From contig CAXXFF010000002.1 in assembly GCA_963676835.2 (NCBI GenBank), positions 64,001-128,000 of the forward strand: a stretch of DNA of 64,000 bases. The letters are read 5' to 3'. A model generated the notes under the pieces. The model searched no databases. It worked only from the letters and a program-made list of their open reading frames with translations, and had not been told where the DNA came from. The position numbers were made by a program, and so were the translations under genes. Positions 13,739 through 30,655 of the stretch are shown here, piece by piece. The stretch comes from Marispirochaeta sp. GTDB taxonomy: Bacteria > Spirochaetota > Spirochaetia > JC444 > Marispirochaetaceae. Position 1 is the stretch's first letter. Each line of letters begins with the position of its first letter.

Positions 13739-14968
13739 ATGAACATTACCACCGTAACAGACGGCATATACCGCTTATCCGCAAACGTTGAAAACATTCT
13801 CTTTGAAGGTCTCTGGCCCATACCCAACGGGGTTTCCATGAACTCCTTTGTTGTAAAGGGTGAAAAAACCGCGATTATCGACGGGGTCTGCGGCTGGGAT
13901 GGTGTACCGGAGACCCTTATCGATCAGTTTAGCCAGGCAGGAATTAATCCGGATACCATTGATTACGTGATCATCAACCATATGGAGCCGGACCACTCCG
14001 GTTGGCTGGAAGCTTTCCGGAAGATCCGGCCGGACTTTACCGTGGTAACCAGCAAAAAGGCGGTGCCTCTGCTGGAAGCCTTTTTCGGCATAGAAAACGA
14101 GGTAATCGAAGTCGGCGACGGCGACAGTCTGGATCTTGGTGCCGGCCGGGTTCTGCAGTTTGCGGAAATTCCCAATGTACACTGGCCGGAGACCATCGCC
14201 ACCTTTGATTCTCTTTCCGGCACCCTCTTCCCCTGCGATGCCTTCGGGAGCTTCGGTTCAATTAATGACGCCCCTTATGATGATCAGCTGAGCGAAGATG
14301 ATCTGGCCTTTTTCGAGAATGAATCGGTCCGGTACTACTCAAACATTGTAGCGGCCTTCTCCATGCCGGTAAAAAAAGCAATTGCGAAATGTGCGGACCT
14401 GCCCATTAAAATAGTGGCTCCCGGCCATGGTATAGTCTGGAGGAAAAATCCACAGAAAATTATCGACGACTATATACGCTATGCAGACTATCAGAAGGGT
14501 CCGGCAAAAAACGAAGTAACCGTAATTTGGGGCTCCATGTACGGTATGACCGAAAAAGGAGTTGCCCCGGCGGTGGAAACCCTCCGCGCTGAAGGGCTTA
14601 CCGTTCACGTTCACCAGGTTCCGGAAAGCTCATGGGGGGATATACTCACCAGTGTATGGACCTCATCGGCAGTTGTTCTTGCCATGCCCACCTACGAGTA
14701 CAAGATGTTCCCTCCCATGGCGTCAGTTCTGGAAGAACTGGGCAAGAAGAAGGTACATAACCGCATAGCCTTCCGCTTCGGCTCATACGGCTGGTCCGGA
14801 GGAGCCCAAAAGGAGCTGGATGCAATCATGGAACGCTACAAAACAGGCTGGGAGTTTCTGGAGCCGGTGGAATTCAAGGGCAGTCCCGCAGAAGCAGACA
14901 TAGACAGGATACAGACTCAATGCCGCAGGGTAGCTGCTGCGGTAAACGAAGCAGTACTTACCGGCTAA
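13739..14968 (+). CDS. fprA: Flavodiiron protein (A-type flavoprotein)
   Basis: NHMEPDHSG, HWPET, DAFGSF and PGHG motifs; flavodoxin SMYGMTE...GSYGWSGGA. Confidence 0.93.
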   Translation: MNITTVTDGIYRLSANVENILFEGLWPIPNGVSMNSFVVKGEKTAIIDGVCGWDGVPETLIDQFSQAGINPDTIDYVIINHMEPDHSGWLEAFRKIRPDFTVVTSKKAVPLLEAFFGIENEVIEVGDGDSLDLGAGRVLQFAEIPNVHWPETIATFDSLSGTLFPCDAFGSFGSINDAPYDDQLSEDDLAFFENESVRYYSNIVAAFSMPVKKAIAKCADLPIKIVAPGHGIVWRKNPQKIIDDYIRYADYQKGPAKNEVTVIWGSMYGMTEKGVAPAVETLRAEGLTVHVHQVPESSWGDILTSVWTSSAVVLAMPTYEYKMFPPMASVLEELGKKKVHNRIAFRFGSYGWSGGAQKELDAIMERYKTGWEFLEPVEFKGSPAEADIDRIQTQCRRVAAAVNEAVLTG

Positions 14969-15000
14969 AACCTCGAAGTAATAAGTTTCATACTGAAGAT

Positions 15001-15025
15001 CGCCCCTTTTTCGGGGCGTTTTTTT
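15001..15025 (+). terminator. Rho-independent terminator after fprA
   Basis: CGCCCC-tttttc-GGGGCG-TTTTTTT. Confidence 0.85.
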
Positions 15026-15035
15026 ATACTTTCGC

Positions 15036-15078
15036 ACAAAGTTAATTGACATTAACGCTTAATGCGCATAAACTTTGT
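15036..15078 (+). promoter_or_regulatory. Sigma70 promoter of the feo operon with an overlapping palindromic operator
   Basis: TTGACA (15046-15051), 17-bp spacer, TAAACT (15069-15074); dyad GTTAAT-tgac-ATTAAC over the -35; outer inverted repeat ACAAAGTT...AACTTTGT. Confidence 0.75.
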
Positions 15079-15109
15079 TCATCCTAATTTACTTTGGAGG
15101 ACCAACCAT

Positions 15110-15358
15110 ATGGTTCCAACATCTGCCACCATGGCACAGGTAAAAGCAGGCCGTTGCTGTAGAATCCACGGTCTTGGTAAAGGCCGCAGCTTCCGGGCAC
15201 GCATGGTAGCTCTGGGAGTTCGCCCGGGTGCACATTTAAAGGTTGTCAGCGGCTGTGGAGACGGCCCGCGTATTGTTGAACTGGGCAGACAGCGAATCAT
15301 GATCGGCGCGGAGATGCTCCACCACATATATATCAATGAGGAAGGAATGGAGAGATGA
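15110..15358 (+). CDS. feoA: Ferrous iron transport protein A
   Basis: RMVALGVRPGA...GPRIVE SH3-like FeoA pattern; GGAGG RBS before ATG 15110. Confidence 0.85.
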   Translation: MVPTSATMAQVKAGRCCRIHGLGKGRSFRARMVALGVRPGAHLKVVSGCGDGPRIVELGRQRIMIGAEMLHHIYINEEGMER

Positions 15359-15603
15359 GTAAAGCAGAAACAGTAAGCCTGGCCGGAATGAAACCCGGAG
15401 AAGGCGCAGTAATTACAGGCTACCGGGCAGGCGGCAAAGAGTACCGCAGGAAGCTGCTGTCCTTCGGTCTGACCGCCGGGACCAGAATAACCCTGGTAAA
15501 AAAGGCACCCATGGGGGACCCCGTAGAAATCAGTGTTCGGGGCTACTCTCTGTCACTTCGTAAATCAGAGGCTGAAGTACTTGAGCTGAGGAGCAAAATA
15601 TGA
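15355..15603 (+). CDS. feoA: Ferrous iron transport protein A (second copy)
   Basis: RRKLLSFGLTAG..APMGDPVEISVRGYSLSLRKSEA. Confidence 0.93.
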   Translation: MSKAETVSLAGMKPGEGAVITGYRAGGKEYRRKLLSFGLTAGTRITLVKKAPMGDPVEISVRGYSLSLRKSEAEVLELRSKI

Positions 15604-17927
15604 GTATCGCAGCACCGGCACGAACAATGACCATTGCCCTGGCGGGAAATCCCAACTGCGGAAAAACCACGATCTTCAACGCCCTTACCGGTTCTTCGGC
15701 AAAAACAGGCAACTGGCCCGGAGTAACCGTTGAGCGCCGGGAAGGAATAATGCATTCAGCTAATGGAGAGACTGCAGTAATCGACCTGCCGGGAATCTAC
15801 AGCCTCTCCGCTGAATCCGAAGACGAAAGAGTTGCCAGGGACTTCCTGATCAGCGGAAGTGTAGATGCGGTGGTCTGCATTGCAGATGCGGCCAATCTTG
15901 AGCGCAATCTCTATCTAACCTCTACCATCATGGAAAGCGGAGTTCCTGTAATACTGGCTCTGAACATGATGGACGCCGCAGAAAAAGCCGGACTCCGGAT
16001 CGATATCAAGAAGCTTTCTACAGAACTGGGATGTCCGGTGCTGCCCCTGAGTGCGGTCAAACCCGACAGCCTGAGAAGCTTCAGAAAAGAGCTTGAAAAA
16101 GAGCTTAGCGGGAACCTTAAACCTGCTTCCGTCAAAATTACCTATGCAGCTGAAATTGAAAAGGCTGCCGGCGAGTGGGAATCGGCACTTGCCGCTGATG
16201 CACTTAGCCTGGGGCTGAATAGCCGCTTTCTTGCCCTGAGCATTCTTGAGGAAGATCCTTTTATTATAGAGAAGTTCGGCGATAACATCGGTAAGGGAAC
16301 CATAGAAAGCATAATAACGAAGATCAGTGATATTTCCGGAACTACCGTTGATATGCTCATTGCCGATAACCGTTACAGCTGGATCACCGATGTCTGTACC
16401 AGAAGTATCAGAGAAACCCGGGAGAGCAGTGAAGCAAAGACCTCAACCGGAGGGCTGGACAGCATACTGCTGCACCGCTTCTTTGGTATACCGATTTTCC
16501 TCATGGTTATGTACCTTGTTTTCTGGGTAACCATGGCAATAGGCGGATCGTTCATCGACTTTTTTGATATTCTTTTCGGCGGCATTTTTGTTGATGGCCT
16601 GGGAAGTCTCATGGCAAATGTGGGCAGCCCGGAATGGCTTATTGCCATAATCGCCGGTGGTATCGGCGGCGGTATCCAGACGGTTTCCACCTTTATACCC
16701 ATTATATTCTTCATGTTTGCCATGCTTGCAATCCTCGAAGATTCAGGCTACATGGCCAGGGCAGCCTTTGTCATGGACAGGGCGATGCGGGCCATCGGGC
16801 TGCCGGGGAAAGCCTTTGTTCCCATGCTGGTGGGCTTCGGCTGTACTGTACCCGCAATTATGGCAACCCGCACCCTGGAATCAAAGCGGGACCGCTTTAT
16901 GACCATATTTATGTCACCCTTTATGTCCTGTGGTGCCCGGCTTCCGGTTTATGCACTTTTTACCGCTGCATTTTTCGGCTCCAGTGCAGGACTGGTGGTC
17001 TTTTCCATCTACCTGGCAGGTGTAGTTCTAGCCATTCTTACCGGGCTGCTGCTGAAACACACCCTCTTTAAGGGCAGCCACAGCCCCTTCGTAATGGAAC
17101 TTCCCTCCTACCACGCACCCCGGTTCGGCCATATTGTGACCAGTGCATGGCGTAGACTCAAGGTGTATATGTTCAGAGCCGGAAAGGTAATAGTCCTGGT
17201 AGTGCTGGTGCTTTCTGTTCTCAACTCATGGGGAACCGACGGCAGTTTCGGCAACGAGGATTCTGAAGAGTCCGTACTTTCGGTAGTAGGTAAAACCATC
17301 ACGCCTCTGTTTGGCCCCATGGGAATCGAAAAAGAAAACTGGCCCGCAACAGTGAGTCTCTTTACCGGACTATTTGCCAAGGAAGCGGTGGTTGGGACCC
17401 TGAACGCCCTCTATTCCCAGGAAGCTGTTGCTTCTTCGGCTGAAGATGAAGAAGCAGAGCCTGAAGCATCATGGAGCCTTGTTCCGGTTATCAGTGAATC
17501 CCTTGCAAGCATTGGAGAAAACCTTGCCGGAGTACTCGGCAGCCTGCTGGATCCCCTGGGAATCGGCCTTATATCGGGAGATGAAGCGGCCACCGCAGAA
17601 GAACTTGAAACAGAAGACAGTGTCTTCACAGGACTGAGAAACAATTTCAGCCCTGTAAGCTCATATGCTTATCTGCTGTTTATCCTCATCTACTTCCCCT
17701 GTGTCGCGGCACTGGGTGCGGCTGTGCAGGAAACAGGAAGAGGTTATGGAACCATACTGGTCACCTACCTCACCCTGCTTGCCTGGATAACATCCACCCT
17801 GGTGTTTCAGATTTTCCAGGGACACAACCTGCTCTGGATAATTGTTCCCCTTCTCCTTCTGGGCGGAATCTTTGCCAGTTTCGCATTCATGGGACGGGGA
17901 CGAGAAAAAATTCAATATCCCGGTTAA
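15600..17927 (+). CDS. feoB: Ferrous iron transporter B
   Basis: GNPNCGKTT, GNWPGVTVE, DLPGIYSL, EDSGYMARAAF and PFMSCGARLP motifs. Confidence 0.97.
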   Translation: MSIAAPARTMTIALAGNPNCGKTTIFNALTGSSAKTGNWPGVTVERREGIMHSANGETAVIDLPGIYSLSAESEDERVARDFLISGSVDAVVCIADAANLERNLYLTSTIMESGVPVILALNMMDAAEKAGLRIDIKKLSTELGCPVLPLSAVKPDSLRSFRKELEKELSGNLKPASVKITYAAEIEKAAGEWESALAADALSLGLNSRFLALSILEEDPFIIEKFGDNIGKGTIESIITKISDISGTTVDMLIADNRYSWITDVCTRSIRETRESSEAKTSTGGLDSILLHRFFGIPIFLMVMYLVFWVTMAIGGSFIDFFDILFGGIFVDGLGSLMANVGSPEWLIAIIAGGIGGGIQTVSTFIPIIFFMFAMLAILEDSGYMARAAFVMDRAMRAIGLPGKAFVPMLVGFGCTVPAIMATRTLESKRDRFMTIFMSPFMSCGARLPVYALFTAAFFGSSAGLVVFSIYLAGVVLAILTGLLLKHTLFKGSHSPFVMELPSYHAPRFGHIVTSAWRRLKVYMFRAGKVIVLVVLVLSVLNSWGTDGSFGNEDSEESVLSVVGKTITPLFGPMGIEKENWPATVSLFTGLFAKEAVVGTLNALYSQEAVASSAEDEEAEPEASWSLVPVISESLASIGENLAGVLGSLLDPLGIGLISGDEAATAEELETEDSVFTGLRNNFSPVSSYAYLLFILIYFPCVAALGAAVQETGRGYGTILVTYLTLLAWITSTLVFQIFQGHNLLWIIVPLLLLGGIFASFAFMGRGREKIQYPG

Positions 17928-17949
17928 TGCCGGATTTGTAACTTCCCTG

Positions 17950-17987
17950 CTCCGCTCCCGGTTCCCTTGTCCGGGAGCGGAGTTTTT
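17950..17987 (+). terminator. Terminator between feoB and the DtxR-family gene
   Basis: CTCCGCTCCCGG-9 nt-CCGGGAGCGGAG-TTTTT. Confidence 0.8.
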
Positions 17988-18029
17988 ATTGGATTAAAGA
18001 TGCAGAATGCTGTACAATCAGCTCCGGCT

Positions 18030-18728
18030 ATGAGTAAAACCGTTGAAACCGAGATGCAGGAGCTGCAGAAACGCTTTCCCGCAGCCCTCGATTATCTTAC
18101 CGAAATATTTCTTCTCCACCGCGAATTCGGTCAGGTGACCAACAGCAAGCTGGCTCAGGCCCTGAGAGTCTCCAAACCTGCAGTAACCCAGGCGGTAAGC
18201 AGACTGAAAAAGCATAAACTGGCAGAACAGGATCTGTACGGCACCATCCGCCTGACCCCAACGGGAAGAATTTATGCTTCCACTGTTTTAAAGCGCCATT
18301 ACCTTATTGAACACCTGCTTATACAGAAACTGGACTACCCCTGGCATAAATCCGACGAGGAAGCACAGCGCCTGCAGGGGGCAATCTCAGAAGAGTTTAC
18401 CCAACACCTTTATGAAGCATTCGATCATCCCCAAACCTGCCCCCACGGGAATCCCTTCCCCGGATCAGACAGAGAGAAAGAACTGGTTACCGCACCCCGC
18501 CTGGCTGATGCACCGGAAAACAGTCCCCTGAAGCTGATACGTATAACAGAAATAGGCGAAGCAGTAGACGGGCTGCTGGAGTTCTGCCACCGGCATAATC
18601 TTCATCCAGGGCGGATTATTCTTGTTATAAAAAAGGAGGAGAATACCATCTATACCGGTTGCTGCGACAATCAGGAAATCCCCATTCCCATGGAGATTGC
18701 CCGGCATCTGTGCTACGCTCTGGAATAA
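18030..18728 (+). CDS. DtxR/MntR-family metal-dependent regulator with C-terminal FeoA-like domain (start uncertain: 18000/18030/18054)
   Basis: LAQALRVSKPAVTQAVSRL HTH; HYLIEHLL; HPQTCPHGNPFP. Confidence 0.88.
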   Translation: MSKTVETEMQELQKRFPAALDYLTEIFLLHREFGQVTNSKLAQALRVSKPAVTQAVSRLKKHKLAEQDLYGTIRLTPTGRIYASTVLKRHYLIEHLLIQKLDYPWHKSDEEAQRLQGAISEEFTQHLYEAFDHPQTCPHGNPFPGSDREKELVTAPRLADAPENSPLKLIRITEIGEAVDGLLEFCHRHNLHPGRIILVIKKEENTIYTGCCDNQEIPIPMEIARHLCYALE

Positions 18729-19345
18729 TGAGAAGAATAACCTGTAGATTTTTTTTTCTGCTTTTCTGTTTTCATATGCCCCTGATGGCTCACCCGCATA
18801 TGTTTATCGATACTCAGCTTGATATTACCCTCGAAGCTGGAAATTTGAAGAGTATTGATATAACCTGGCGGTTCGACCCTCTGTTCACTGCCTCCATTAA
18901 AGGTGATTTTGATGAAAACAGGGATGGCAGATTTGACGCCCGGGAGATCGCACTTATAAGGGAGTACGCGTTTACCAATCTGAAGAACTACGATTACTTC
19001 ACTTTCGTAAACATCGAAGGAAAAACCCATGTGCCTGAAGAAATAGACGCGTTCACCGCCAGAATGGAACAGGAAACCCTGGTCTATGAGTTCACCACCT
19101 CATTCAATCTTCCCCTGGAAAAAGAGGATTTTGCAGTGGCGATCTATGATGACACCTTCTGGTGCGATATAACCTATACAGATACTAATCCAGTCCATAT
19201 TACCGGGAATCCTGGAGCGGATTGGAAACTGGTGGAAAACCGGGACATGGCCATCCAGTATGATAATGCAACAACTATAGACCGGAACGGTAAAACCTAC
19301 TCAGGTACCGCATATCCACAGCAGATTGTGGTAACCATTCCCTGA
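18728..19345 (+). CDS. DUF1007-family periplasmic protein (ZevA-like)
   Basis: Signal peptide followed by AHPHMFID; YDDTFW motif; start overlaps upstream stop (TAATG). Confidence 0.85.
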   Translation: MRRITCRFFFLLFCFHMPLMAHPHMFIDTQLDITLEAGNLKSIDITWRFDPLFTASIKGDFDENRDGRFDAREIALIREYAFTNLKNYDYFTFVNIEGKTHVPEEIDAFTARMEQETLVYEFTTSFNLPLEKEDFAVAIYDDTFWCDITYTDTNPVHITGNPGADWKLVENRDMAIQYDNATTIDRNGKTYSGTAYPQQIVVTIP

Positions 19346-19346
19346 G

Positions 19347-20234
19347 ATGAAAAGAATAATCCTCTTTACACTGCTCATGCTGCTGACACAGACAGTAATC
19401 TTTTCCCAGGGCAATCCTTTTCTGGGGTCTCCCGGGGATTCCGACAGAACGGAAAAAGAGGATCCCCCCGGGGAAGTGAAACAATCCGCCTGGCTGCAGA
19501 AATCCGCATCCATACAGAAAGATCTGCAGAAACAAATAGCCGCTGCCCTGAAGGGAGAAAACGGATTATCAGGAATGCTAATATTCCTGGGTCTCTCTTT
19601 TCTCTACGGATTACTCCATGCCCTGGGGCCGGGACATAGAAAAACCGTCCTTTTCAGCTACTTTATCGGAGAAAACGCCCGGCCGATCACAGGAATCATG
19701 ACGGGACTACTCCTGGCTGTGCTGCATGCAGGCAGTGCCGTCCTGCTTGTAGGCGGCACTGCCTGGTTTACCACCCGTTCGCTGCTGCTCTCGGTAAATC
19801 AGGCGGAAGCATGGCTCTATCCGGTAACCTACGGAATCATACTGATCCTGGGCCTCTGGATGATTATCCATGGAATTATTGATTTCCGACACCATAGTCA
19901 CTCTCACGGCTCCTCTTCAAAGGGCCTGACAGGAATGCTCCTCTCCGGGCTGGTTCCCTGTCCGGGAGCCTCGGCAATAATCATCTTTTCCCTTGCTTCA
20001 GGCACGGTTCTGCCGGGGATTCTGGCGGTACTGGCCATGTCTCTGGGAATGGGAACTCTTCTTGCGGGAATAGGCCTGGCAGCTGTGCTGTTCCGGGAAA
20101 AAATAGGCAGGCTCGTAAAAACCCGGAGAGACGGCAGCCAGGGCACAGCTCTGCTGGAATTGAGCCTGCATACAGCGGGCGGGCTTTTTCTTGCAGCTTT
20201 CGGCGCCGTTTTTCTATTGCCAGGCCTTATCTAA
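19347..20234 (+). CDS. RcnA/NicO-type nickel/cobalt transporter (ZevB-like)
   Basis: YGLLHALGPGHRK, His-rich loop and GLVPCPGA motifs. Confidence 0.88.
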   Translation: MKRIILFTLLMLLTQTVIFSQGNPFLGSPGDSDRTEKEDPPGEVKQSAWLQKSASIQKDLQKQIAAALKGENGLSGMLIFLGLSFLYGLLHALGPGHRKTVLFSYFIGENARPITGIMTGLLLAVLHAGSAVLLVGGTAWFTTRSLLLSVNQAEAWLYPVTYGIILILGLWMIIHGIIDFRHHSHSHGSSSKGLTGMLLSGLVPCPGASAIIIFSLASGTVLPGILAVLAMSLGMGTLLAGIGLAAVLFREKIGRLVKTRRDGSQGTALLELSLHTAGGLFLAAFGAVFLLPGLI

Positions 20235-20301
20235 ACAGCGGCGGTCATCAGATCAAAATTCTTCATAGCGAGAAGGTACCAAAAAACCAATTGGCAGACA
20301 A

Positions 20302-22200
20302 ATGGCTGGAAGGTATTGGCACACCCCGGGTCAAAGCGGTAAGCTACACGCCGCAGACACAGGAGTTACATCGATGCGATTCATTCCCGAACAGTGCAGA
20401 ATTATCTATACAAAAAGGGGCGAGAAAAGCCCCTCCGTTCTGGCCGGCCGCTGGCCCCTGGAAAATGATGAAATAAGCCTTAAACTGGAGGAGGAACGCA
20501 ACGAAGACAATCCTGCCTACCGTTTTTCCTTCTCTGTGAAAGCTGAGCTTTTCGTCGAGGAAATTGTTCTGAACGGAAGACTCGATGGAACCCTGCGGCC
20601 GGTTTCGGCGCTTACCGAAGGATTTCAGTCCCGCAGCACTACGGGCATCGCCACCCCTGATATCCGGCAGAAGTCCCTGCAGAAACAGAGTATCCCCGGA
20701 CACAGTTCTCCCTGGGGCGACAGCGCCGGAAAAGGCGGGGAGGCCGTATCCGAAAGCCTGCTGCTGCTGGATGACGGCCTGAATGAAAGCCTGCTGATAT
20801 CTCAGGAGGCACCTTTTTCGGAATTTGTCTTCTTCGAAGCAGGGATTCAGCAGCAGCCGGTAAAACTCAATGCCCACTGGCATCTTTCCATAGCTCTGGA
20901 GCTGGGAAGCACCTATACAACAGGCTGGGTATCAACCTCATCAGGAACCGGAGAAAAACTGCTTATAGAATGGAGCCGCCGGTCCTCAAAGGCATCTGGA
21001 ATAAACTGTGAAGGATTCACTACCCCTCCGAGAATCTGGACCAGCTGCATGGATAATTCCCGGGAAGCAGGTCCGGACTACATAGAGAAAAATATCAGCA
21101 CTGCCGCCGGCAGTAAGCTGCCTCTCGATGTTTTTCTTATAGACGCAGGATGGGAGGAATTTCCCGGCGACTGGCACCGACCCTCCCCTGCCTTCGAAGG
21201 CAGGCTGCCGCAGCTGGCCCGGTCTGCAGCAGCGGCAGGATTCCGCCCGGGAATCAGCATTGCACCCTTTATTGCAGCCAGGAACTCTGAAGCATTTAAA
21301 CAGCCGGGCTGGATACTCTGTAACGTGAAAGGCAAACCGGTGCCTATAGCCGCAGGGCTTTTAGGACGAAAACTTTTTACCCTGGATCTCAGCAACCCGG
21401 AAGTGATCAACTACATAAGCTCAAGCATCCGTACCATTACCCGGGACTGGGGCTTTCAGACGATAAAACTGGATATGCTCTTTGCGGGAACCCTCCCCGG
21501 TATGCACAGCGATCAGACAAAAGGGATTTACCGCCTGTTTACCGAAGCCATGCAAATTATCCGGGAAGCTGCCGGAAAAGAAACTCTGCTTATCGGGAGC
21601 GGCATGCCCCTAACCGGCGGAGCAGGCACCATTGATATCGCGGGAATCTCCTGCGGCGATGCCTCTTTGTGGGATAAAAATGTCTGCCTTATTCCAAGAA
21701 AAACCAACGGACTTCCGGCACTTCAGTCGTCTGTCCGCAGCACTATTATCCGAAGCTTTTACAACAGACAGTTCTGGCTCAACGATCCGGGACTGCTGCT
21801 TACAGAAGAGCCGGAACGGGATGTTCTGCTTACAGCTGCACTGGTCACAGGAGGAGCACTGAGTTTCGGCGATAACCTGGCAGAAATGAGTGAAGAATCC
21901 CTTGAAAAGATGAAGAGTATCCTTGAGAAGGCTCAAATTTATGCTCAGGGAAGGACTGCTCCCTTAAGGATTTTCGGAGACAGTGAGGTCTTTGCATTGT
22001 ATAACGATACCGGGCTTATACTGCTGTTCAATCTGAACAGTGAAGAAGTAACCATCGAGTTAAGACTGGCCGGGTACAGGGATATTCTATCCCCCTACAC
22101 CGCCTATAAGCCCTTTACAGGAGCCGAAGATCACCCGCTGGAGGCTCCGCGGAACATGACTATTCCCGCTGTGGGCTACAAGGAAATCAGGCTCTCCTGA
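20302..22200 (+). CDS. Glycoside hydrolase family 36-like (alpha-galactosidase-like); start uncertain
   Basis: FLIDAGWE..GDW, LDLSNPEV, WGFQTIKLD and FWLNDPG motifs. Confidence 0.75.
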   Translation: MAGRYWHTPGQSGKLHAADTGVTSMRFIPEQCRIIYTKRGEKSPSVLAGRWPLENDEISLKLEEERNEDNPAYRFSFSVKAELFVEEIVLNGRLDGTLRPVSALTEGFQSRSTTGIATPDIRQKSLQKQSIPGHSSPWGDSAGKGGEAVSESLLLLDDGLNESLLISQEAPFSEFVFFEAGIQQQPVKLNAHWHLSIALELGSTYTTGWVSTSSGTGEKLLIEWSRRSSKASGINCEGFTTPPRIWTSCMDNSREAGPDYIEKNISTAAGSKLPLDVFLIDAGWEEFPGDWHRPSPAFEGRLPQLARSAAAAGFRPGISIAPFIAARNSEAFKQPGWILCNVKGKPVPIAAGLLGRKLFTLDLSNPEVINYISSSIRTITRDWGFQTIKLDMLFAGTLPGMHSDQTKGIYRLFTEAMQIIREAAGKETLLIGSGMPLTGGAGTIDIAGISCGDASLWDKNVCLIPRKTNGLPALQSSVRSTIIRSFYNRQFWLNDPGLLLTEEPERDVLLTAALVTGGALSFGDNLAEMSEESLEKMKSILEKAQIYAQGRTAPLRIFGDSEVFALYNDTGLILLFNLNSEEVTIELRLAGYRDILSPYTAYKPFTGAEDHPLEAPRNMTIPAVGYKEIRLS

Positions 22201-24053
22201 TTCCGGCGGATAAGGACATCTTCATAGGGAGCAAAACGCCAGCCCTGGGTATAGGAGTCGGGCTTTCTGTCGGGACTGATTATGGTCCCGATGCCGGCAG
22301 TTTCCAGATGCCGCCGCAGAACCTGTATGCGCTTGTAGATGGACTGATAGCGCCGGCACATGCTGGGCTTGCAGCCGCCGTCCCCGCAGGAATCCTTCCC
22401 GTCCCCGATTAAAGCGCTTATATCGCCGCAGAGCAGTACTCCTTCCGGAGCAGAAAGAAACCCGCTAAGGATTCTCATATTTGCCTCGGAAAGACCGGAC
22501 TCAAGACGGCGGCCTTCAAAGTAGACCTCATCATCCTTTACCAGAAGATTCTTCGGCCGCAGGGAATGGAATATCAGGGCTCCCGCAAACAACAGAACCA
22601 ACAGCAGCCTGTCCAGAACAGCAAACACCATGGAACCCGACAAAACCGGCCCGGGAAATGCAACAAGCATTACCATGTAGAACCAGATAAGCCAGAAAAT
22701 GCTTCCGCTTAAAAGCCGGCGCAGCCTTTCCGGATTGCGGTCGCCTTCAAGCGCAGGAAAACGCAGAAGCTGGAGAATAGTAAAGACGGCCATATTCTTC
22801 AGAGCAAATGAAAAGGCAGCCAGCTCAGTAATTCCGGGGATGAGCAGAAAGGGCAGGAATACTATTCCCGCCAGGGAGAGGGCAAATACAATCTTAAGAG
22901 AAGTTCCCCGGGATACAGTAAGTGACCCGAGCATGAAAAGTGCTTCAAAAACCGCCCAGGGAAGGAGGATTCCGGAAGCAGCTGCATTCATCCGGCTGAG
23001 TTCTGAAATTATCAGAAAACTTCCTGCAAAGGCGGCAAAAAAGGGCATTCCCCTTTGAAAAACGGTAAACCAGGAGTTCCCCCGGATACGGGTCTGTTCC
23101 GCCGCCTGAGTACTATCCAGTTTAGCCGGAATTAATCCTGCAAAAAAGAGACTCTTTTTTTCCGTTGCAGTAACAATCCCCTCTTCGAGCTCAAGCAACC
23201 AGCCCTCCGATGTGATGTCCCGCTTGTTAGCCGGAGGCACCAGCCTGCCTATTCCCAGGTTCTCAAGTTTCCCCGAAAGGGCACTTATATTTCTATAGAT
23301 AACCGCATAGGCAGGGCATTGGGACGCCTTGCACTCTCCACCGGGGACACAATGCTCCGCTCCCGGAGTAAGATAAGCAAAATCCCTGCAGAAAACCTTT
23401 CTGTCCCGGCTCTGAATACAACCTTTCAGTATTGCCTGCTGCAGATCAGAAAAGAGATCACTGACATCCTCATCCCGGAAGAGTATCCTCTCCCCGGCAC
23501 TGAGCACATCGTTTTCGGAACCTCCCCGGAGAATCACCAGCAGCAGAAGTGCGGGAATATAACTGAGACTCTCATACACCCCGATAAACACTGCATCCAA
23601 CTCCTGTACCGCCATTCCTACCGTAATAAATTGATGCAGCTGCAGGATTACCAGCAGGGCGGAATAGGAACCGAGAACCAGGATAATAAGGTTCAGGCCC
23701 CGGGCCAGTCGGTTGAAATCCCTTCGTCTGGCAAAACGGTACACAAGGCTGTAGCTTACCGCCAGGAGCGGCCCGGGATAGAGTTTCATCAGAAAACCGA
23801 GAAAGGCAGCATCGATATAGATACCGCCTGCAATGGCAATAGCGGAAACCGCCAGCCCCAGTACTGAAAGCAGTGTAAAGGCATAGCGGCTGCTGCTGCG
23901 CCGGAAAACAAGAAGAACTCCCCCTCCCTGCAGCAGGGCCATCAGCCCCCCGGCATAAACAGAATACTCTCCCGCTGCCGCAAAGCCTGTAACCAGGGCC
24001 GGCAGGGAGGAATAGACGGCCAGAGCAAAAACAAACAGACGGAAGGGAATCAT
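22176..24053 (-). CDS. Hypothetical polytopic membrane protein, 2x [TM bundle + OmpR/PhoB-like winged helix with 4-Cys insert]
   Basis: Internal duplication, aa ~180-292 and ~500-612, each with C-x12/13-C-x4/5-CKxSxC-x2-Y-x2-IY...LE..GIG...GW. Confidence 0.7.
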   Translation of the reverse strand: MIPFRLFVFALAVYSSLPALVTGFAAAGEYSVYAGGLMALLQGGGVLLVFRRSSSRYAFTLLSVLGLAVSAIAIAGGIYIDAAFLGFLMKLYPGPLLAVSYSLVYRFARRRDFNRLARGLNLIILVLGSYSALLVILQLHQFITVGMAVQELDAVFIGVYESLSYIPALLLLVILRGGSENDVLSAGERILFRDEDVSDLFSDLQQAILKGCIQSRDRKVFCRDFAYLTPGAEHCVPGGECKASQCPAYAVIYRNISALSGKLENLGIGRLVPPANKRDITSEGWLLELEEGIVTATEKKSLFFAGLIPAKLDSTQAAEQTRIRGNSWFTVFQRGMPFFAAFAGSFLIISELSRMNAAASGILLPWAVFEALFMLGSLTVSRGTSLKIVFALSLAGIVFLPFLLIPGITELAAFSFALKNMAVFTILQLLRFPALEGDRNPERLRRLLSGSIFWLIWFYMVMLVAFPGPVLSGSMVFAVLDRLLLVLLFAGALIFHSLRPKNLLVKDDEVYFEGRRLESGLSEANMRILSGFLSAPEGVLLCGDISALIGDGKDSCGDGGCKPSMCRRYQSIYKRIQVLRRHLETAGIGTIISPDRKPDSYTQGWRFAPYEDVLIRRNQESLISL

Positions 24054-24740
24054 CTAGGCAGCCTTTTCCTTAAATGTCAGTCGAGCCATAAGAATAGGGG
24101 TAATAAAGAAAACGGCAGAGAAAATACCGAAGCGGGGATAGGTGAGAGCGATGATGACCGCCGCAAAGGCAGCGGTGAGGGCATCGGCATAAAAGGGTTT
24201 AAAGACCTGGGAAAGATAGTGGAGAAAGTCCCTCCCCTCCTCCAGCCGGTAAAAGAGGGCATTGAGAACACAGGAAATAAGAAACAGAAAGGGAGCGGCG
24301 CCGATGGCCGGCAGAATATACATCCCCCCGGTCAGATTTATCAAAAGACCATAGACTTTATCAACAGCATAGAGACCAACAATAAAATGGCTGACATTAA
24401 AAAGGGTAAGCCGGAAATGGGTATTAAACAGGTGACGAAAGCCCCCCTCTTCAATGCGGAAGCTCAATAACAGACTTGCAGCAATACAGACCAGAGCGGT
24501 GACAGGCCCGCCGGAAAGATAGGCGGCAAAAAAGACCGCTTCCAGGGTGGAAATATAGATATTTCCGCGCCGGTGGTGTACCGAGAAAGACTCATTCAGA
24601 ATGCCCAGAAGCGACCAGACCAGCACAGCCGCAGGGTCGATTGTGAATGAAGAACCGGAGAGCAGCAGAAAAGTTGAGGCTAAAGCTCCAAGGGAGAGAA
24701 CTATCAGAAAAACTGCAGCACTTACCGGATAATCGGACAT
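24054..24740 (-). CDS. Stand-alone MASE-like integral membrane protein
   Basis: About 7 TM; LNESFSV..ISTLEAVFFAA..GGP..TLFNVSH..PILMARLTF resembles the N-terminal membrane domain of HD-GYP/GGDEF proteins, with no output domain. Confidence 0.6.
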   Translation of the reverse strand: MSDYPVSAAVFLIVLSLGALASTFLLLSGSSFTIDPAAVLVWSLLGILNESFSVHHRRGNIYISTLEAVFFAAYLSGGPVTALVCIAASLLLSFRIEEGGFRHLFNTHFRLTLFNVSHFIVGLYAVDKVYGLLINLTGGMYILPAIGAAPFLFLISCVLNALFYRLEEGRDFLHYLSQVFKPFYADALTAAFAAVIIALTYPRFGIFSAVFFITPILMARLTFKEKAA

Positions 24741-24888
24741 TTTAAAACCTCAGAAACATGTTTCTCCACAAAATCGTACGGAAGCATGTTCTTACTGCCT
24801 GACGGCAGCTGTTTTTTTCTGCTGGTATGATACGTTTCCTGAATAGAGAAGTCAATTGATCTGAAAACCAGTTAAAAGAGGTATAAAA

Positions 24889-26121
24889 ATGAAAAACAGA
24901 CTATTCGGCCTTGCTGTTCTAACAGCAGTTCTGCTTGCACTTCTGTCCTGCGAGAGCGCAGGCAGCGGCGGAAACTCTTCACCGGAACCAGGGCCCTTGA
25001 AATTCAGCGACGCAGGAGCTGGATTCAACGGCAACCGACAGGGCCCTTCATGCTCCACTGCGGATATAGATAATGACGGTGACATTGATATCTTTTTCTC
25101 AGGTTACCCCGCAACCGCCCTTTACCGGAATAAAGGAAACAACACATTCGAATCCGGAGGATTCCTGGAGTTCACCAATACAGACTATTCAGCATCGGTT
25201 TTTGCAGATGTTGACTGCGACGGGGATTTTGACCTCATCCGAATGGGAAGAACAGGATCCAGTTCTACCGCCTATACTGTGGTTGAACTAAACAACGGCA
25301 GTGGTAGTTTTACCTCTGAGACTGCAGGTCTTACCGCTCTCCGCCAGGGGGATATTGCTGCCGGGGATGTTAATAATGACGGGTATCCGGATATATTAAT
25401 TCAGGGTATGGACAGTTCTGGAAACTTTATGACGTGTCTTTATCTTAATAATGGGGATCCCGACGACGATGGATGGGACTTCTTCAGCGAATCGACATTC
25501 ACCTTTATAGAACTTGCCAGAGGTTCGGTTGAATTCGGACATCTCAATGACGATGACTACCTTGATCTGTTAATCACCGGCCTTGACAGCAGCAGCACGA
25601 AACAAACCATGATCTACCTCAACGACGGTGACAGCGGAGATGACGGGTGGGACGACACCTTTTCAGAACTCCCGGGACATCCGCTCCCCGGCATGTACAA
25701 TTGCGAAAGCGCAATTGTGGATATAGACAACGACCAGGACAACGACATTATCCTGGCGGGAGATACAGGTCAGGGAGAGTGCCTGATCTTTACCAATGAC
25801 GGAAACGCCGGATTTACTGATGGTCAGACTCTAACTGGGGTATCAGCCGCCTTCCTTGTAACCGGCGATCCGGATGATGACGGCGATCCCGACCTTATTG
25901 TGGGAGGTTGGTACGGTCAGGATGGATATACAGCCCGAACCTTCTTCTATCGCAACAACGAAGGAACCTTCGAAGAAGAGGAGAATATAGAACTTACCGA
26001 TATGCAGGACGGTGCGGGCAGTTTTTTTGATTCCGACAACGACGGAGATCTGGATCTGGCCATCTGCGGCGGCAGTGGTGCAACTGCCTATGGCTTTCTT
26101 TACCTGAACGGCCGGTTCTAA
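24889..26121 (+). CDS. FG-GAP/VCBS-repeat (beta-propeller) lipoprotein 1
   Basis: Lipobox LLSC; about 7 DxDxDGDxD repeats with LYLNNG strands. Confidence 0.88.
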   Translation: MKNRLFGLAVLTAVLLALLSCESAGSGGNSSPEPGPLKFSDAGAGFNGNRQGPSCSTADIDNDGDIDIFFSGYPATALYRNKGNNTFESGGFLEFTNTDYSASVFADVDCDGDFDLIRMGRTGSSSTAYTVVELNNGSGSFTSETAGLTALRQGDIAAGDVNNDGYPDILIQGMDSSGNFMTCLYLNNGDPDDDGWDFFSESTFTFIELARGSVEFGHLNDDDYLDLLITGLDSSSTKQTMIYLNDGDSGDDGWDDTFSELPGHPLPGMYNCESAIVDIDNDQDNDIILAGDTGQGECLIFTNDGNAGFTDGQTLTGVSAAFLVTGDPDDDGDPDLIVGGWYGQDGYTARTFFYRNNEGTFEEEENIELTDMQDGAGSFFDSDNDGDLDLAICGGSGATAYGFLYLNGRF

Positions 26122-26194
26122 GCTCACAACCTTCCTCCATCGGGAAGTTAAGACCTTGCAGACCCTTCCGGGGACACCCCCGGAGGGGTTGTTT
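26098..26194 (+). repeat. ~97-bp direct repeat, copy 1 (gene 3' end plus terminator)
   Basis: CTTTACCTGAACGGCCGGTTCTAAGCTCACAACCTTCCTCCATCGGGAAGTTAAGAC...CAGACCCTTCCGGG...CCCGGAGGGGTTGTTT. Confidence 0.92.
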
Positions 26195-26242
26195 ATATCC
26201 AAATCTGAACAGAAGCCAAGTTTTTAAGAGAGAGGTATAAAA

Positions 26243-27481
26243 ATGAAAAACAGACTAATTAACCTTGCAGTAATTACAGTAGTGCTGCTGGCACTCCTTT
26301 CCTGCGAGAGCGCAGGCAGCGGCGGAAGCTCTTCACCGGAACCAGGGCCCTTGACATTCAGCGATGCGGGAGCAAACCTGACAGGGGTGCGCTATAACCC
26401 CACCTGCAGCATCGCCGATGTTAACAACGACGGGCATACAGATCTACTTATTTCTGGACACTCAAGCAGCGGTGATGTGACAAAACTCTACCTCAATGAC
26501 GGCACTGGCACATTTTCCCATGCCAATGCCGGAATGGCGAATCTGCGCTACACAATGAGCGGCTTTGCCGACATGGACAATGATGGTGATATGGATTTAT
26601 GCCTGGCAGGCAACAATAGCAGCGGGAACCCCAGGGCCTACCTCTACATAAACGCCGGGGACGGTACCTTCAGCGAATCAGCTCAGACTGTTTACGGGGC
26701 TTCGGATGGATCACTTGCCTTCGCAGATGTAGACAATGATGGAAATATTGACCTGCTGGTATGCGGTAAGCATGATATTGATGGGGATGACAATATTGAA
26801 ATCAGTTCCATTCTCTATATAAACCAGGGAGATAATAATTCAGATGGCCAATGGGATGGGTACCAGCCATCCACAGAGAGCCTTACCGGGGTAAGAAACG
26901 GAACCTGCAGCTTTGCTGATATTAATAATGATGGCTACCCTGAAATTCTCATCAGTGGAAAAGCCGATGCATCACCGGACACCTTTACCGGGCTCTATAT
27001 AAACAATGGAGACCGTACTTATGCAGAATCCGGGACAGTTTTTCCCCAGCTGGGATACGGTCAAGGAACAGCTTTTGCCGATGTCAACGGCGATGGAGAC
27101 CTGGAAATACTCCTGGCCTATGAGGATAGTGAACTGAAAACCGAGGTATGGGGACTGAACCTGTCGGGGACATACGAAAAGGAATCAGATTTTGCGGAAC
27201 CCGCTTCAGGGAGAATTATTTCCGGCGACCCCGATTCTGACGGAGATATAGATATTATTATCTACGATTATAGTTCCGACGAAACAGCAGGGACCAATTT
27301 CTATATCAACGACGGATCGGGCCTTTTCAGCCGCAAGAACATGGGCCTGTCCAGCATAGAGTCATGCGGGGAGGGACACTTCTTCGATGCAGATGGAGAC
27401 AGTGATCTGGACCTCATTATCTGCGGCAAGGACAGCACCGGCAGTGGAAATACAACTCTTTACCTGAACGGCCGGTTCTAA
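26243..27481 (+). CDS. FG-GAP/VCBS-repeat (beta-propeller) lipoprotein 2, tandem paralogue
   Basis: Lipobox LLSC; about 7 FADxDNDGDxD repeats; same N- and C-termini as the upstream gene. Confidence 0.88.
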   Translation: MKNRLINLAVITVVLLALLSCESAGSGGSSSPEPGPLTFSDAGANLTGVRYNPTCSIADVNNDGHTDLLISGHSSSGDVTKLYLNDGTGTFSHANAGMANLRYTMSGFADMDNDGDMDLCLAGNNSSGNPRAYLYINAGDGTFSESAQTVYGASDGSLAFADVDNDGNIDLLVCGKHDIDGDDNIEISSILYINQGDNNSDGQWDGYQPSTESLTGVRNGTCSFADINNDGYPEILISGKADASPDTFTGLYINNGDRTYAESGTVFPQLGYGQGTAFADVNGDGDLEILLAYEDSELKTEVWGLNLSGTYEKESDFAEPASGRIISGDPDSDGDIDIIIYDYSSDETAGTNFYINDGSGLFSRKNMGLSSIESCGEGHFFDADGDSDLDLIICGKDSTGSGNTTLYLNGRF

Positions 27482-27553
27482 GCTCACAACCTTCCTCCAT
27501 CGGGAAGTTAAGACTATTCAGACCCTTCCGGGACACCCCCGGAGGGGTTGTTT
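27458..27553 (+). repeat. ~97-bp direct repeat, copy 2 (gene 3' end plus terminator)
   Basis: Same sequence 1360 bp downstream, with a few substitutions and one indel. Confidence 0.92.
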
Positions 27554-27610
27554 TTCTCTTCTCGTTCCCTTCTTTCTCCTCTTTTTATCCTTTTTATTCT
27601 TTAGTTCCCT

Positions 27611-30535
27611 TTATTCTCCCTGTTCCCCATCCTTTCCAGCTTCAGCTTTCCCCCCGATACGTCCGTACATCCAGTTCATACCCAAAAGCACTGCACCTGC
27701 CAGAATAAATACCACCGCCCGTTCCAGGGTATCCGATCTGGCCATATCGAGAATAATCAGACGCCCCAGGCTGAAAAGGATAAGCAGAAAGGAGCTCAGG
27801 CGGAAGCTGTTCTCCCGCAGAATCATACTCATGGTAAAGAGGGCAAAGCTCTCGAGGATAAGCAGAGAGGTAAGCACAGGACCGGAAAAACTGAGAAAGA
27901 GGAAGAATCCTATACCGATAAAATAGGGATAGAGCAGCGCCGCAGAACGCCTCTCTGTAAGAAGAAGAGCAAGCTTGCCGGAATACTCATCCCCGGCAAC
28001 CTTCAACCCGTAGACCCCGCCCAGGTAGGCCAGTCCCAGAAAGACTGACCCCAGGGCGGTCCACCAGGATAGATCAAAAACCTCAACCCGGAATGATCCG
28101 GACTCCAGCCCGGAAAAGGGGAGAAAGAAAAGCCCGATCCAGAAAAAGATGAGGGAGAATGAGTAGTAGCTCCGCATATACCGGGGACCGAAACGGCCGG
28201 AGAGAAGCAGAATTATAGCTGCCGCAACACAGATAAGCCCGGTCCAGACCAGACCTGCCTCAAGCCCGACAAAGCCTGCCCCCGCAAGGGCTGCCAGAAA
28301 AAGCACCCAGTTTCTGCTGCCCGAAGCCTCCGTTCCCCGCTTTCGCCCCCAGACGAGCATGGAGGCAAGCACCAGCACATCCTGAACAATACGCTGCCAG
28401 CCGTGAATCTTCTGATTCAGAAGCGGCTCGGAGCCCATTAAGGCAAACAGAGCTGCCACCAGGGAGACCCCGGTGCCGCAGATAACAAAACTCCGGGCAA
28501 TGTCCGACCGTAAACGGGGAATATAGGTTGCGACATAGAGCAGTATGGAAACAACAGCCCACAGGCTTACTGCAAGCCAGACCTCATGCTTGCCGGCAAA
28601 ACTCAGAATGAGAGTACAGGTATTCAATACCCCGAAAAAAACAACAGGAAGAGCCCGTACCTGCCTGCGGATAAGGGGCAGGCTGAGAACAAGCACCTGA
28701 ACAAGCAGCATGAGAGTCAGCAGGTTGAGACTGAAGTCCCCGGGGAAAATGGCCTGAAGAGGAAGAGTAACCAGATAGGTGATTCCGTGAAGCAGAATAA
28801 CCAGCCCCAGGAGGAGCCTGGAAAGGAGCTTTTCGCGGTTGAGAAAAGAAACTAAAGCCGCTCCCGCGGTAAGGGGAAGGACCATACCGCCGCCCAGGGA
28901 AAACCACTCGGGAAAATCAAAGAAAGCACCGGTAAGGATATAAAGGGAAACCATTCCCAGTGCGGCTGCCGCCATGAGACTTCTGGATGCAATATCCGCC
29001 TTTTTATAGAAAAACTGCAGCAGCACCAGGGTTCCGCCGCCCATGGCATACAGAAAAATAAGCCGGTGAACAGCCTGGATAGTACCGGCATCATCCCCAT
29101 AGGAGATAGACCCCGCCTCTATAATGGTTAGAACCAGAACTGCAAGAGAGGCCGCTGCGGCAGCTATGGAGAAAACAATCCGCAGCACCTTCTCCCGGCG
29201 GACATCAAAGGCAGCTAAAAGCGCTACCAACCCGGCAATTTCCACCGCCGCATAGAGATCGAGATTGAATTTGCTGAATCCGAACACCGCAGCCACCGCC
29301 AGGGCAAGCCCGGCTATTGAATCAAGCCTGCGTATAGCCTCCGGGAGACGCCGGGTAAAACGGCCGGAAAGGTAGGCCCCAGCTCCCAGCAGAAGAAACA
29401 GAAAGGAGATCCATTTGTATTCCGCTCCCAGGGCGGTTGTTCCCGCACCAAGATAGAGCCAGGCGGCAATACGGGCGGCATTGGCAAAACGGTCGTGCTT
29501 ATAACCCCGTACATAGGGAGCTGCCATTCCGGGAAGCAGCCCTCCCGCAAGTGCCCCGAACAGGGGCAGGTCGATGCCGGTAAAGGAGAAAAGAGCATTT
29601 GGATCGCCATGAGAGACCCAGAGGACGGTGAAGACAAAAAATCCACCCTGGGCCAGAAACTGATGAAGCCCCCAGGGACGCCGCAGAAGAGGGACGGAGC
29701 TGAAAGCAGTAACCACCGCAGCGGCGGTGAGGGATGCAGCAGAAGGAGGAGCGGATGCCAGAGCTGCAAGGCTGATCAGCACATGAAAGGAAGAAAAGAG
29801 CTGGGCATGTACCCGCAGGGCAAAAAAGAGGTTGGCCCCGATACCCAGAAAAAGCAGGGCGTATCCCTGGGGTGCGGACTGTACCCACTTCAGCCAGGGA
29901 ATGGATGATGCTCCCAGAGAGGCAAAGAGAAACAGGGCCCCCGCAGCAGACTGAAACCAGCCGGAGGCGTCAAGCAGCCCTTTTTTTCTGTTCAGGTAGA
30001 TACTAACAAACCAGAAGAGCAGGGAAATTACCATGAGCATGAGAAAGCGGGCAACCTGCCCCATCTTCAAGGCGGTTAATACTGCCAGAAAACTGAAGCC
30101 GATAACCAGGGCAAACACGCCGAGAATACCCGTCCAGCGGTCGGAAAAACGGTCTTCCAGATTCTTTAGCAGCCGTGGGATCTTCCCCGGACCGGTGCTT
30201 TCAGCAGGTTTCCTGCTTTCTTTACCCTGAGAACCGGCTTCGTCTGCCCGGGAAGCTGCAGATGTTGATGAAGGTTGTACCGAAGAAAGGGCAGCAGAAT
30301 TATCCGGGATATCCTCCTGCTTCTCTACAGATTCTGCAGATTCTGCAGCAGAAAAATCACTGTTTTTCCATTTTTTTTCTACCGTCTCAAGGTCTTCAAT
30401 CCGGCCATGGAGCCGGTGAACCAGAGTCTGGAGATCCTTGACCTTTCTGCTTAAGCCTATGGTGCGGAAGCCCAGTATACTTCCTGTAAGAAAGATGAGT
30501 ATTATACCGCCGAAAAAAACTATCTCAAAATCCAT
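27611..30535 (-). CDS. DUF2339-family polytopic membrane protein
   Basis: N-terminal TM, coiled-coil and low-complexity linker, LEDRFSDRWTGILG, many TMs, C-terminal RLIILDMA..ERAVVFILAGAVLL; start reassigned to MDFEIV. Confidence 0.8.
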   Translation of the reverse strand: MDFEIVFFGGIILIFLTGSILGFRTIGLSRKVKDLQTLVHRLHGRIEDLETVEKKWKNSDFSAAESAESVEKQEDIPDNSAALSSVQPSSTSAASRADEAGSQGKESRKPAESTGPGKIPRLLKNLEDRFSDRWTGILGVFALVIGFSFLAVLTALKMGQVARFLMLMVISLLFWFVSIYLNRKKGLLDASGWFQSAAGALFLFASLGASSIPWLKWVQSAPQGYALLFLGIGANLFFALRVHAQLFSSFHVLISLAALASAPPSAASLTAAAVVTAFSSVPLLRRPWGLHQFLAQGGFFVFTVLWVSHGDPNALFSFTGIDLPLFGALAGGLLPGMAAPYVRGYKHDRFANAARIAAWLYLGAGTTALGAEYKWISFLFLLLGAGAYLSGRFTRRLPEAIRRLDSIAGLALAVAAVFGFSKFNLDLYAAVEIAGLVALLAAFDVRREKVLRIVFSIAAAAASLAVLVLTIIEAGSISYGDDAGTIQAVHRLIFLYAMGGGTLVLLQFFYKKADIASRSLMAAAALGMVSLYILTGAFFDFPEWFSLGGGMVLPLTAGAALVSFLNREKLLSRLLLGLVILLHGITYLVTLPLQAIFPGDFSLNLLTLMLLVQVLVLSLPLIRRQVRALPVVFFGVLNTCTLILSFAGKHEVWLAVSLWAVVSILLYVATYIPRLRSDIARSFVICGTGVSLVAALFALMGSEPLLNQKIHGWQRIVQDVLVLASMLVWGRKRGTEASGSRNWVLFLAALAGAGFVGLEAGLVWTGLICVAAAIILLLSGRFGPRYMRSYYSFSLIFFWIGLFFLPFSGLESGSFRVEVFDLSWWTALGSVFLGLAYLGGVYGLKVAGDEYSGKLALLLTERRSAALLYPYFIGIGFFLFLSFSGPVLTSLLILESFALFTMSMILRENSFRLSSFLLILFSLGRLIILDMARSDTLERAVVFILAGAVLLGMNWMYGRIGGKAEAGKDGEQGE

Positions 30536-30655
30536 ATTTTCTCTTCCTGTTCCGCTAGTGTATAGCCCGGGAGAAAATCTGTCGAGGGCGGAAAAAGCGT
30601 GGTATGTGATATAATGGTTGGGGTAATGAAAGATGTAATGAAAACAGGTGAGAGG

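Follow-up and report, generated by a model that had tools for sequence, protein, structure and literature searches.

A putative transmembrane activator of surface-lipoprotein genes with four-cysteine winged-helix domains in Marispirochaeta

The locus and its tandem membrane protein

The window, that is the whole stretch of DNA that was analysed, comprises 64,000 nucleotides of Marispirochaeta sp. (assembly GCA_963676835.2, contig CAXXFF010000002.1, positions 64,001 to 128,000). It contains a gene for a membrane protein with two predicted DNA-binding domains, preceded by the gene of a smaller membrane protein and separated by a conserved palindrome from two divergent genes for FG-GAP repeat lipoproteins (Table 1). 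As a whole, we read the locus with moderate confidence as encoding a transmembrane activator of surface-lipoprotein genes with a four-cysteine (Cys4) metal site. A contig from a sequencing run was identical to positions 21500-26126 with 0 differences; note that this run may be the window's own source.

The regulator consists of two copies of a transmembrane (TM) part followed by a soluble domain. The initial annotation had described it so, and both the open reading frame (ORF) and an alignment of the two halves (29% over 141 aa, E 9e-16) confirm this. In a profile-profile comparison the soluble domains matched with 99.8% probability and the TM halves with only 3% (E 0.014), which agrees with the claim that the latter are very divergent. 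How many helices does each half have? Five to six had been proposed. The number is six: a model of residues 1-303 (101 sequences, pLDDT 89.9) has six helices followed by the soluble domain, and K/R-rich loops alternate along the protein in the way the positive-inside rule predicts for 12 TM helices. Since the basic loops alternate in this manner, both soluble domains should be cytoplasmic. The periplasmic loops are short, and membrane domain 2 carries a conserved FWLIWFY. The half-1 TM model gave only generic helical matches in a structure search (best Z 9.2), a result uninformative for helical bundles. The cysteine motif quoted by the initial annotation is present as stated in both halves, and an extra cysteine, C212, is not conserved.

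Table 1. Features of the regulator locus, with positions in the window
Feature	Position	Strand	Remarks
Tandem regulator gene	22176..24053	-	625 aa; two units of six TM helices plus Cys4 winged helix-turn-helix (wHTH)
wHTH domain 2	22203..22556	-	aa ~500-617; Cys 542/556/561/566; recognition helix YQ.IYKRI
Membrane domain 2	22563..23051	-	aa ~335-497; about six predicted helices, from hydropathy and charge only
wHTH domain 1	23163..23516	-	aa ~180-297; Cys 222/235/241/246; helix Y..IYRNI, wing PENKRDI..EGW (subfamily consensus)
Membrane domain 1	23514..24044	-	aa 4-180; six helices
MASE9-like membrane protein gene	24054..24740	-	228 aa; stop abuts regulator ATG; candidate co-sensor
Candidate operator	24755..24790	.	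imperfect 36-bp palindrome AACATGTTTCTCCACAAAATCGTACGGAAGCATGTT; half-site consensus ACWYGTTTCCGTACG
TATGAT, candidate extended -10 of lipoprotein promoter	24826..24831	+	function inferred
TTGACT-17-TATCAT, sigma70-like promoter of MASE9-like/regulator operon	24827..24855	-	consensus match only
FG-GAP repeat lipoprotein gene 1	24889..26121	+	410 aa; predicted target
FG-GAP repeat lipoprotein gene 2	26243..27481	+	412 aa; paralogue, near-identical signal peptide

The winged-helix family and its cysteines

What fold do the soluble domains adopt? The model of domain 2 (pLDDT 84) runs from a beta-sheet through helix 1, a short strand, helix 2, a Cys loop (pLDDT 54-78) and a 20-residue helix 3 to a wing, and this order, E-E-H-H-H-E/E, fits the OmpR/PhoB-type topology. 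The top four VIA matches are AdeR (Z 8.8, root-mean-square deviation 2.4 over 87 aa), GlnR (8.8), PrrA (8.6) and BaeR (8.5), with CadC at 7.2 and ToxR at 6.8; the top matches span 87-93 aa, N-terminal sheet included. Foldseek places BaeR, SaeR, AdeR and CosR in the top ranks, and domain 1 also matches AdeR (Z 8.4). A profile of the family aligned colinearly with seven OmpR-like domains of the same genome, picked by their motifs (E 0.0015, probability 17%); in this alignment helix 2 begins with the first cysteine, the loop carries about 19 extra aa, and GW falls on GY. An Atlas search with domain 2 reached a best score of 0.85, and one cluster with 43% Trans_reg_C serves as a lead only.

Several results weigh against this assignment. 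For domain 2 Foldseek gave no match at E 0.001, a Z of 8.8 is barely above the level usual for common folds, and PurR (8.4) and ScpB (8.3), winged helices outside the OmpR type, are tied with the best structural matches. Trans_reg_C (PF00486) did not match the full protein, its single domains or 14 family domains, and Response_reg did not match the tandem protein, in which TM domains occupy the receiver position. Judging from the models, we still assign both soluble domains to the OmpR/PhoB-type winged helix with high confidence. The element order proposed by the initial annotation is borne out by the model, VIA and Foldseek, and its placement of the cysteine insert in the transactivation loop between helices 2 and 3 by the model and the colinear alignment. 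In PhoB this loop contacts RNA polymerase, according to a section of PMC5430869. The family thus shares the fold of the OmpR/PhoB response regulators, with their order of beta-sheet, helix 1, helix 2, loop, recognition helix and wing, but differs from their effector domain by the loop insert, a longer recognition helix and a helix in the wing, and has no receiver domain.

Of the 162 cluster representatives that a profile of 14 domains retrieved at E up to 0.001, 151 have an E of 1e-10 or better and 150 were listed; 157 proteins were analysed. Sixteen of these are tandem. Most others are single units of 300-350 aa, so single-unit homologues, which the initial annotation had only anticipated, make up the majority of the family. 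The family is unannotated and mostly found in Spirochaetia. Of 401 genomes of the class, 31 have the wHTH domain, and of 301 in a phylum-wide sample, 3 have it; the window's own genome is in both counts, and the large genome scans scored the best 7-14 candidates per genome, so that weak members may be missed. The window's genome also encodes a single-unit paralogue (G000:C2:444030-444929). Pfam, NCBIfam, PHROGs and PADLOC gave no meaningful family for the tandem protein, its partner or relatives, and the PDB gave no sequence relative; an architecture outside described families, as had been claimed, agrees with these library searches. One member, P0015 (427 aa), carries the Cys4 winged helix behind two TM helices flanking a large extracytoplasmic loop. 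Since the domain stands there behind a different input module, it appears to be a modular output.

Did the tandem form arise by duplication? A quick tree of 162 domains groups the domain 2 sequences in one clade (SH-aLRT 99) and all but one of the 16 domain 1 sequences in another (SH-aLRT 98), and each group has its own recognition-helix and wing consensus. The fusion is therefore old and its halves specialised, which amends the tandem duplication of the initial annotation; the tree does not resolve domains 1 and 2 as sisters. Half 1 is homologous to the single-unit TM domain (97.5%) yet lacks the HRD, invariant W, R.EPR.E and YN.YN that single-unit TM domains conserve, mostly on the periplasmic side. 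Some family loci have decayed. A second tandem copy in genome G044 (L046:11953-13772) has a frameshift and a stop where its orthologue in G071 is intact, and the tandem locus of G076 (L071:7239-9000) is in pieces with its operator kept. In G042 a multi-TM LuxR-type regulator lies directly 3' of a single-unit family gene (L010:1919-2839).

The cysteines are kept throughout the family, as the initial annotation had supposed. After removal of six incomplete domains from 173, at least four cysteines are present in 165 of the 167 complete ones. Three columns are 98% invariant, and the fourth cysteine takes one of two nearly exclusive positions, giving C..CxxC-x7-10-C in 119 of 136 single domains and C..C-x3-6-C-x4-C in 30 of 31 tandem domains. 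Between the first and the second cysteine lie 5 to 55 aa, and P0096, P0110 and P0132 tolerate low-complexity inserts of 46-55 aa at this place. Because one ligand moved between subfamilies while the count stayed at four, the comparative evidence for a metal site is strong, and the domains are very likely metal-bound.

Which metal is it? By inference we favour zinc. The loop insert carries three of the cysteines and the fourth caps helix 2, and the four most likely bind one structural Zn ion, which would shape the surface that meets RNA polymerase. The same regulator with the same targets could instead hold an iron-sulfur cluster whose redox, O2 or NO state decides whether the protein contacts RNA polymerase or binds DNA, and the protein would then integrate a membrane signal with a cytoplasmic one. 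Such a cluster would suit the single-unit pattern C-x(5-55)-C-x2-C-x9-C, which resembles the WhiB pattern C-x(14-22)-C-x2-C-x5-C, as well as the three remaining cysteines of P0017 domain 1 and P0030 and the position of the site in the loop that PhoB uses for RNA polymerase (the same section of PMC5430869). However, the variable spacer and the moving ligand would suit a tolerant mononuclear site, and no iron or redox genes recur among the family's neighbours. The window's feoAB genes are 4-7 kb off and do not recur near other loci. They belong to a block at 13739-20234 which, by eye and from motifs, we take to comprise a flavodiiron-like gene, feoA-feoA-feoB, a DtxR/MntR-like regulator and a nickel/cobalt-transporter-like pair; none of these was seen beside other family loci. 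We regard the iron-sulfur cluster as unlikely and keep zinc as the preferred metal.

Probable partner gene, candidate operator and lipoprotein genes

In the loci retrieved, each tandem gene whose upstream sequence is available follows a homologue of the 228-aa gene. A profile from eight homologues gave strong matches only in the 8 tandem-carrying genomes of 401, and one further weak match was full of stops. By language-model features the protein resembles MASE9: it has an Atlas feature score of 0.95 against clusters that are 21-32% MASE9, with which it has 216 of 256 features in common. The Pfam hidden Markov model of MASE9 (PF20972) did not match it. MASE9 has been described fused to HD-GYP or GGDEF-EAL, whereas the partner stands alone beside a DNA-binding protein; a search for longer, fused forms of the partner found none, which is weak evidence. 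An in-frame TAG separates partner and regulator, and its read-through is rejected since in relatives the two genes overlap out of frame.

Is the regulator then a one-component system, as the initial annotation proposed? This is plausible for the single-unit members, which may sense a periplasmic-face cue through their conserved polar residues. It is doubtful for the tandem form, because the latter always follows a MASE9-like gene and has lost the polar motif of the single units. By our analysis the partner probably acts as a co-sensor. MASE9 has been proposed to bind a ligand within the membrane (part of bioRxiv 10.1101/2021.11.05.467447), and CadC uses the membrane protein LysP as co-sensor (in a portion of PMC5430869). 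The partner probably supplies the signal to the tandem form in the way LysP does for CadC.

Where would the regulator bind? The stretch 24741-24888, proposed earlier for an electrophoretic mobility shift assay, contains the conserved palindrome 24755-24790. Of the 11 tandem units that could be assessed, 10 have the half-site ACWYGTTTCCGTACG. At divergent promoters it forms a palindrome, and where the lipoprotein gene follows the regulator (L048, L049, L054, L055) the site lies on that 3' side as well. With a matrix from 10 sites of other genomes, the palindrome ranks first in 4.4 Mb, with 39.7 bits versus 17.2 for the next. The top five half-sites all precede lipoprotein or exported-protein genes. 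Three of the five also pass a strict same-strand rule. With 40 shuffled matrices no top-five half-site passed it, although about one match of equal score arises from shuffling. Patterns of the ACWYGTTTCCGTACG type occur in 6 of 8 tandem carriers and in 28 of 393 other genomes; of the loci returned from non-carriers, 25 of 26 fall inside ORFs. A second palindrome (TTGGCGCACGTGCGCCAA; TTnGCrCACGTGCkmmAA) is found at single-unit genes with the helix YRN(L/Y)KNR (4 of 9 loci and one variant) and in none of 5 control genomes. Helix type and palindrome type therefore vary together between subfamilies.

Some observations count against this picture. The matrix was built from the sites at other tandem loci, which are thus not independent. 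At 4 of the 9 loci with its helix type the second palindrome is missing, and at L070 it lies before the gene of a hybrid kinase. In G184, which lacks the regulator, two decayed sites stand in front of FG-GAP lipoprotein genes, and the tandem locus of G207 has neither a site nor a lipoprotein neighbour. Remote sites were seen only in the three genomes with the single-unit paralogue of helix YKRIYNQI, and the complete tandem-only genome G159 showed none. The wider regulon may therefore be shared with the paralogue or belong to it. The same operator type flanks this paralogue in G044 and G071, and its own locus in the window's genome has no good site (best 9.8 bits).

Could the motif simply have been inherited with duplicated lipoprotein 5' ends, or be read by another factor or by the single-unit paralogue only? 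The tandem protein would then be a passenger of the cassette, with its winged helices used for protein contacts. Several site-bearing lipoprotein genes do have similar N-termini and flanks, and G184 and G207 show site and tandem protein apart. However, the tandem-only genomes G159, G301, G204 and G076 keep the site beside the gene, the palindrome type covaries with the helix, the site precedes unrelated targets (FG-GAP, Fn3, Ig-like, FGE-like), and the pattern is found in 0 of 5 non-carriers of the same genus. We consider inheritance or another reader very improbable; from comparison of sequences, a protein of the family likely binds the motif.

Other identities of the motif did not fit by their consensus layouts, namely an ECF (extracytoplasmic function) or sigma54 promoter (element order) and a tyrosine-recombinase site (2-bp spacer). 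Rfam gave no family in 20000-31000. At L058, L076 and L077 a GAGTCCC..GGGACTC-like sequence is a possible third palindrome type, or else a terminator.

Which genes might be controlled? Lipoprotein-like proteins account for 19 of 69 genes flanking 38 units, compared with 184 of 3268 genome-wide, and carry FG-GAP, Fn3, Ig-like, cadherin-like, LRR or FGE-like domains. They flank 9 of 11 tandem units. Against a general link, only 9 of 27 single-unit loci have such a neighbour, and the calls depend on our own lipobox rule in related genomes. In G002, of the same genus, the counterpart of window 22626-27658 is missing between conserved flanks; this stretch holds the larger part of the regulator gene along with the partner, the site and both lipoprotein genes.

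Remains of the cassette are seen at several places. What is left in G002 (L052:5886-8269) is a domain-2 fragment beside a 651-aa chemoreceptor-like gene (methyl-accepting, by eye), and the match of a relative's contig (run X4) also ends at window 27659. In G184 (L130:7835-10981), two tandem lipoprotein genes, of which the one scanned is FG-GAP, each follow a decayed operator, possibly as an orphaned cassette. At L047:12018-12440 (minus strand from the partner gene) a short remnant ORF behind an intact operator retains the beginning of an FG-GAP lipoprotein together with its C-terminal end; judged from its sequence, it is an internal deletion of a target gene.

Two further observations concern the possible targets. 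After the lipobox cysteine, C-x-x-A-G-S-(G/S)-G is common to many lipoproteins of this genome with or without an operator (24889-24990, 26243-26340; L150:4057, L151:4484, L001:7745), possibly as a sorting or tether signal or as a shared 5' cassette. A possible second recurrent target type is formed by exported TPR proteins encoded by the first gene of an operon, which follows a candidate operator in this genome (L152:6194-8254) and a single-unit gene in G209 (L062:8656-10749).

Promoter geometry and relation to known systems

Does the regulator activate or repress? Activators bind upstream of the -35 region. At five divergent loci a TATGAT is found 71 bp from the operator start, give or take about one base. 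Several single half-site loci have -10-like boxes at around 51 bp from the site; all these boxes are of our own picking. With either offset a half-site would occupy positions of about -64 to -48 relative to the lipoprotein promoter. Because it lies there just upstream of a poor -35, an activator is the most likely role, and on this promoter reading the tandem regulator probably is one. On the minus strand the palindrome falls in the predicted leader of the regulator operon, so the regulator may also damp its own operon.

The position in the leader would equally suit a membrane-tethered repressor, which blocks the lipoprotein promoter and its own until a signal from the partner or proteolysis frees the site. 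Sites also persist before lipoprotein genes in the regulator-less G184, where loss of a repressor would leave the genes usable. However, the half-sites lie 5' of the -35 at two offsets that differ by 20 bp and share one face of the helix, which is an activator position, and G002 lost the targets together with the regulator. Repression is thus quite unlikely in our view.

As an activator, the protein might work as follows. A membrane signal would pass through the MASE9-like partner to the tandem protein, whose winged helices would then bind the half-site. The two different domains of one chain would read one 16-bp half-site, and two chains the 36-bp palindrome. The metal-braced loop would contact RNA polymerase, and surface lipoproteins would be induced; in this way a regulator in the inner membrane could control genes for adhesin-like lipoproteins at the surface. 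A bolder version, which we hold as doubtful, sees an undescribed spirochaete family with an Fe-S or redox-labile Zn site in the RNA-polymerase loop, a fused pseudo-dimer that hands sensing to MASE9, and helix-variant regulons of adhesin-like lipoproteins. If the redox reading were true, one protein would join a membrane cue with the cytoplasmic redox state.

How does the protein compare with known regulators? Like ToxR, CadC, TcpP and PsaE it has a membrane-anchored OmpR-type wHTH and no phosphorylation module. It would work like ToxR/CadC yet fails their single-TM definition: those have one TM helix and a periplasmic domain, while the tandem protein has six TM helices per unit followed by a C-terminal wHTH. 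The Cys4 loop insert and two wHTH domains in one chain further set it apart from ToxR-like receptors, with which it has no sequence match. WhiB-like proteins and Fur/PerR/BosR likewise have four cysteines with a CxxC core in a DNA-binding regulator, but are soluble, differ in fold or in the position of the Cys site, and neither is among the listed fold matches. By its predicted domains the protein fits the broad class of transmembrane transcription regulators, with the same combination of TM and DNA-binding parts as in the sections of PMC10269533 consulted. That survey, in the same sections, reports Spirochaetota as enriched in such regulators and 27% of regulators with more than two TM helices, and the word cysteine does not occur in its main text.

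Since the family has no Pfam DNA-binding match, a domain-model census would likely miss it; with no Pfam or NCBIfam model, the same probably holds for domain-based surveys of membrane regulators in general. Literature searches, with subscription papers and supplements outside their scope (the supplements of PMC10269533 could list members), found neither the family nor an OmpR-type domain with a Cys4 site described. OmpR/PhoB winged helices belong to the most thoroughly studied DNA-binding domains, and a Cys4 site in their transactivation loop was not found in these searches. Three questions are opened: how free-living spirochaetes regulate their surface lipoproteins, which signal MASE9 perceives, and in what way a metal site modulates the activation of transcription. 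As a predicted operator, target genes and a partner protein are available, all three are directly testable.

Some minor features lie next to the lipoprotein genes. A hairpin at 26161-26190 separates FG-GAP gene 2 from gene 1. Near-identical GC-rich hairpins follow both genes (26161-26190, 27521-27549), as terminators or REP-like elements and a trace of duplication. Further on, 27611-30790 codes for a 1059-aa polytopic membrane protein which has no Pfam match at E up to 1 and is conserved in G002.

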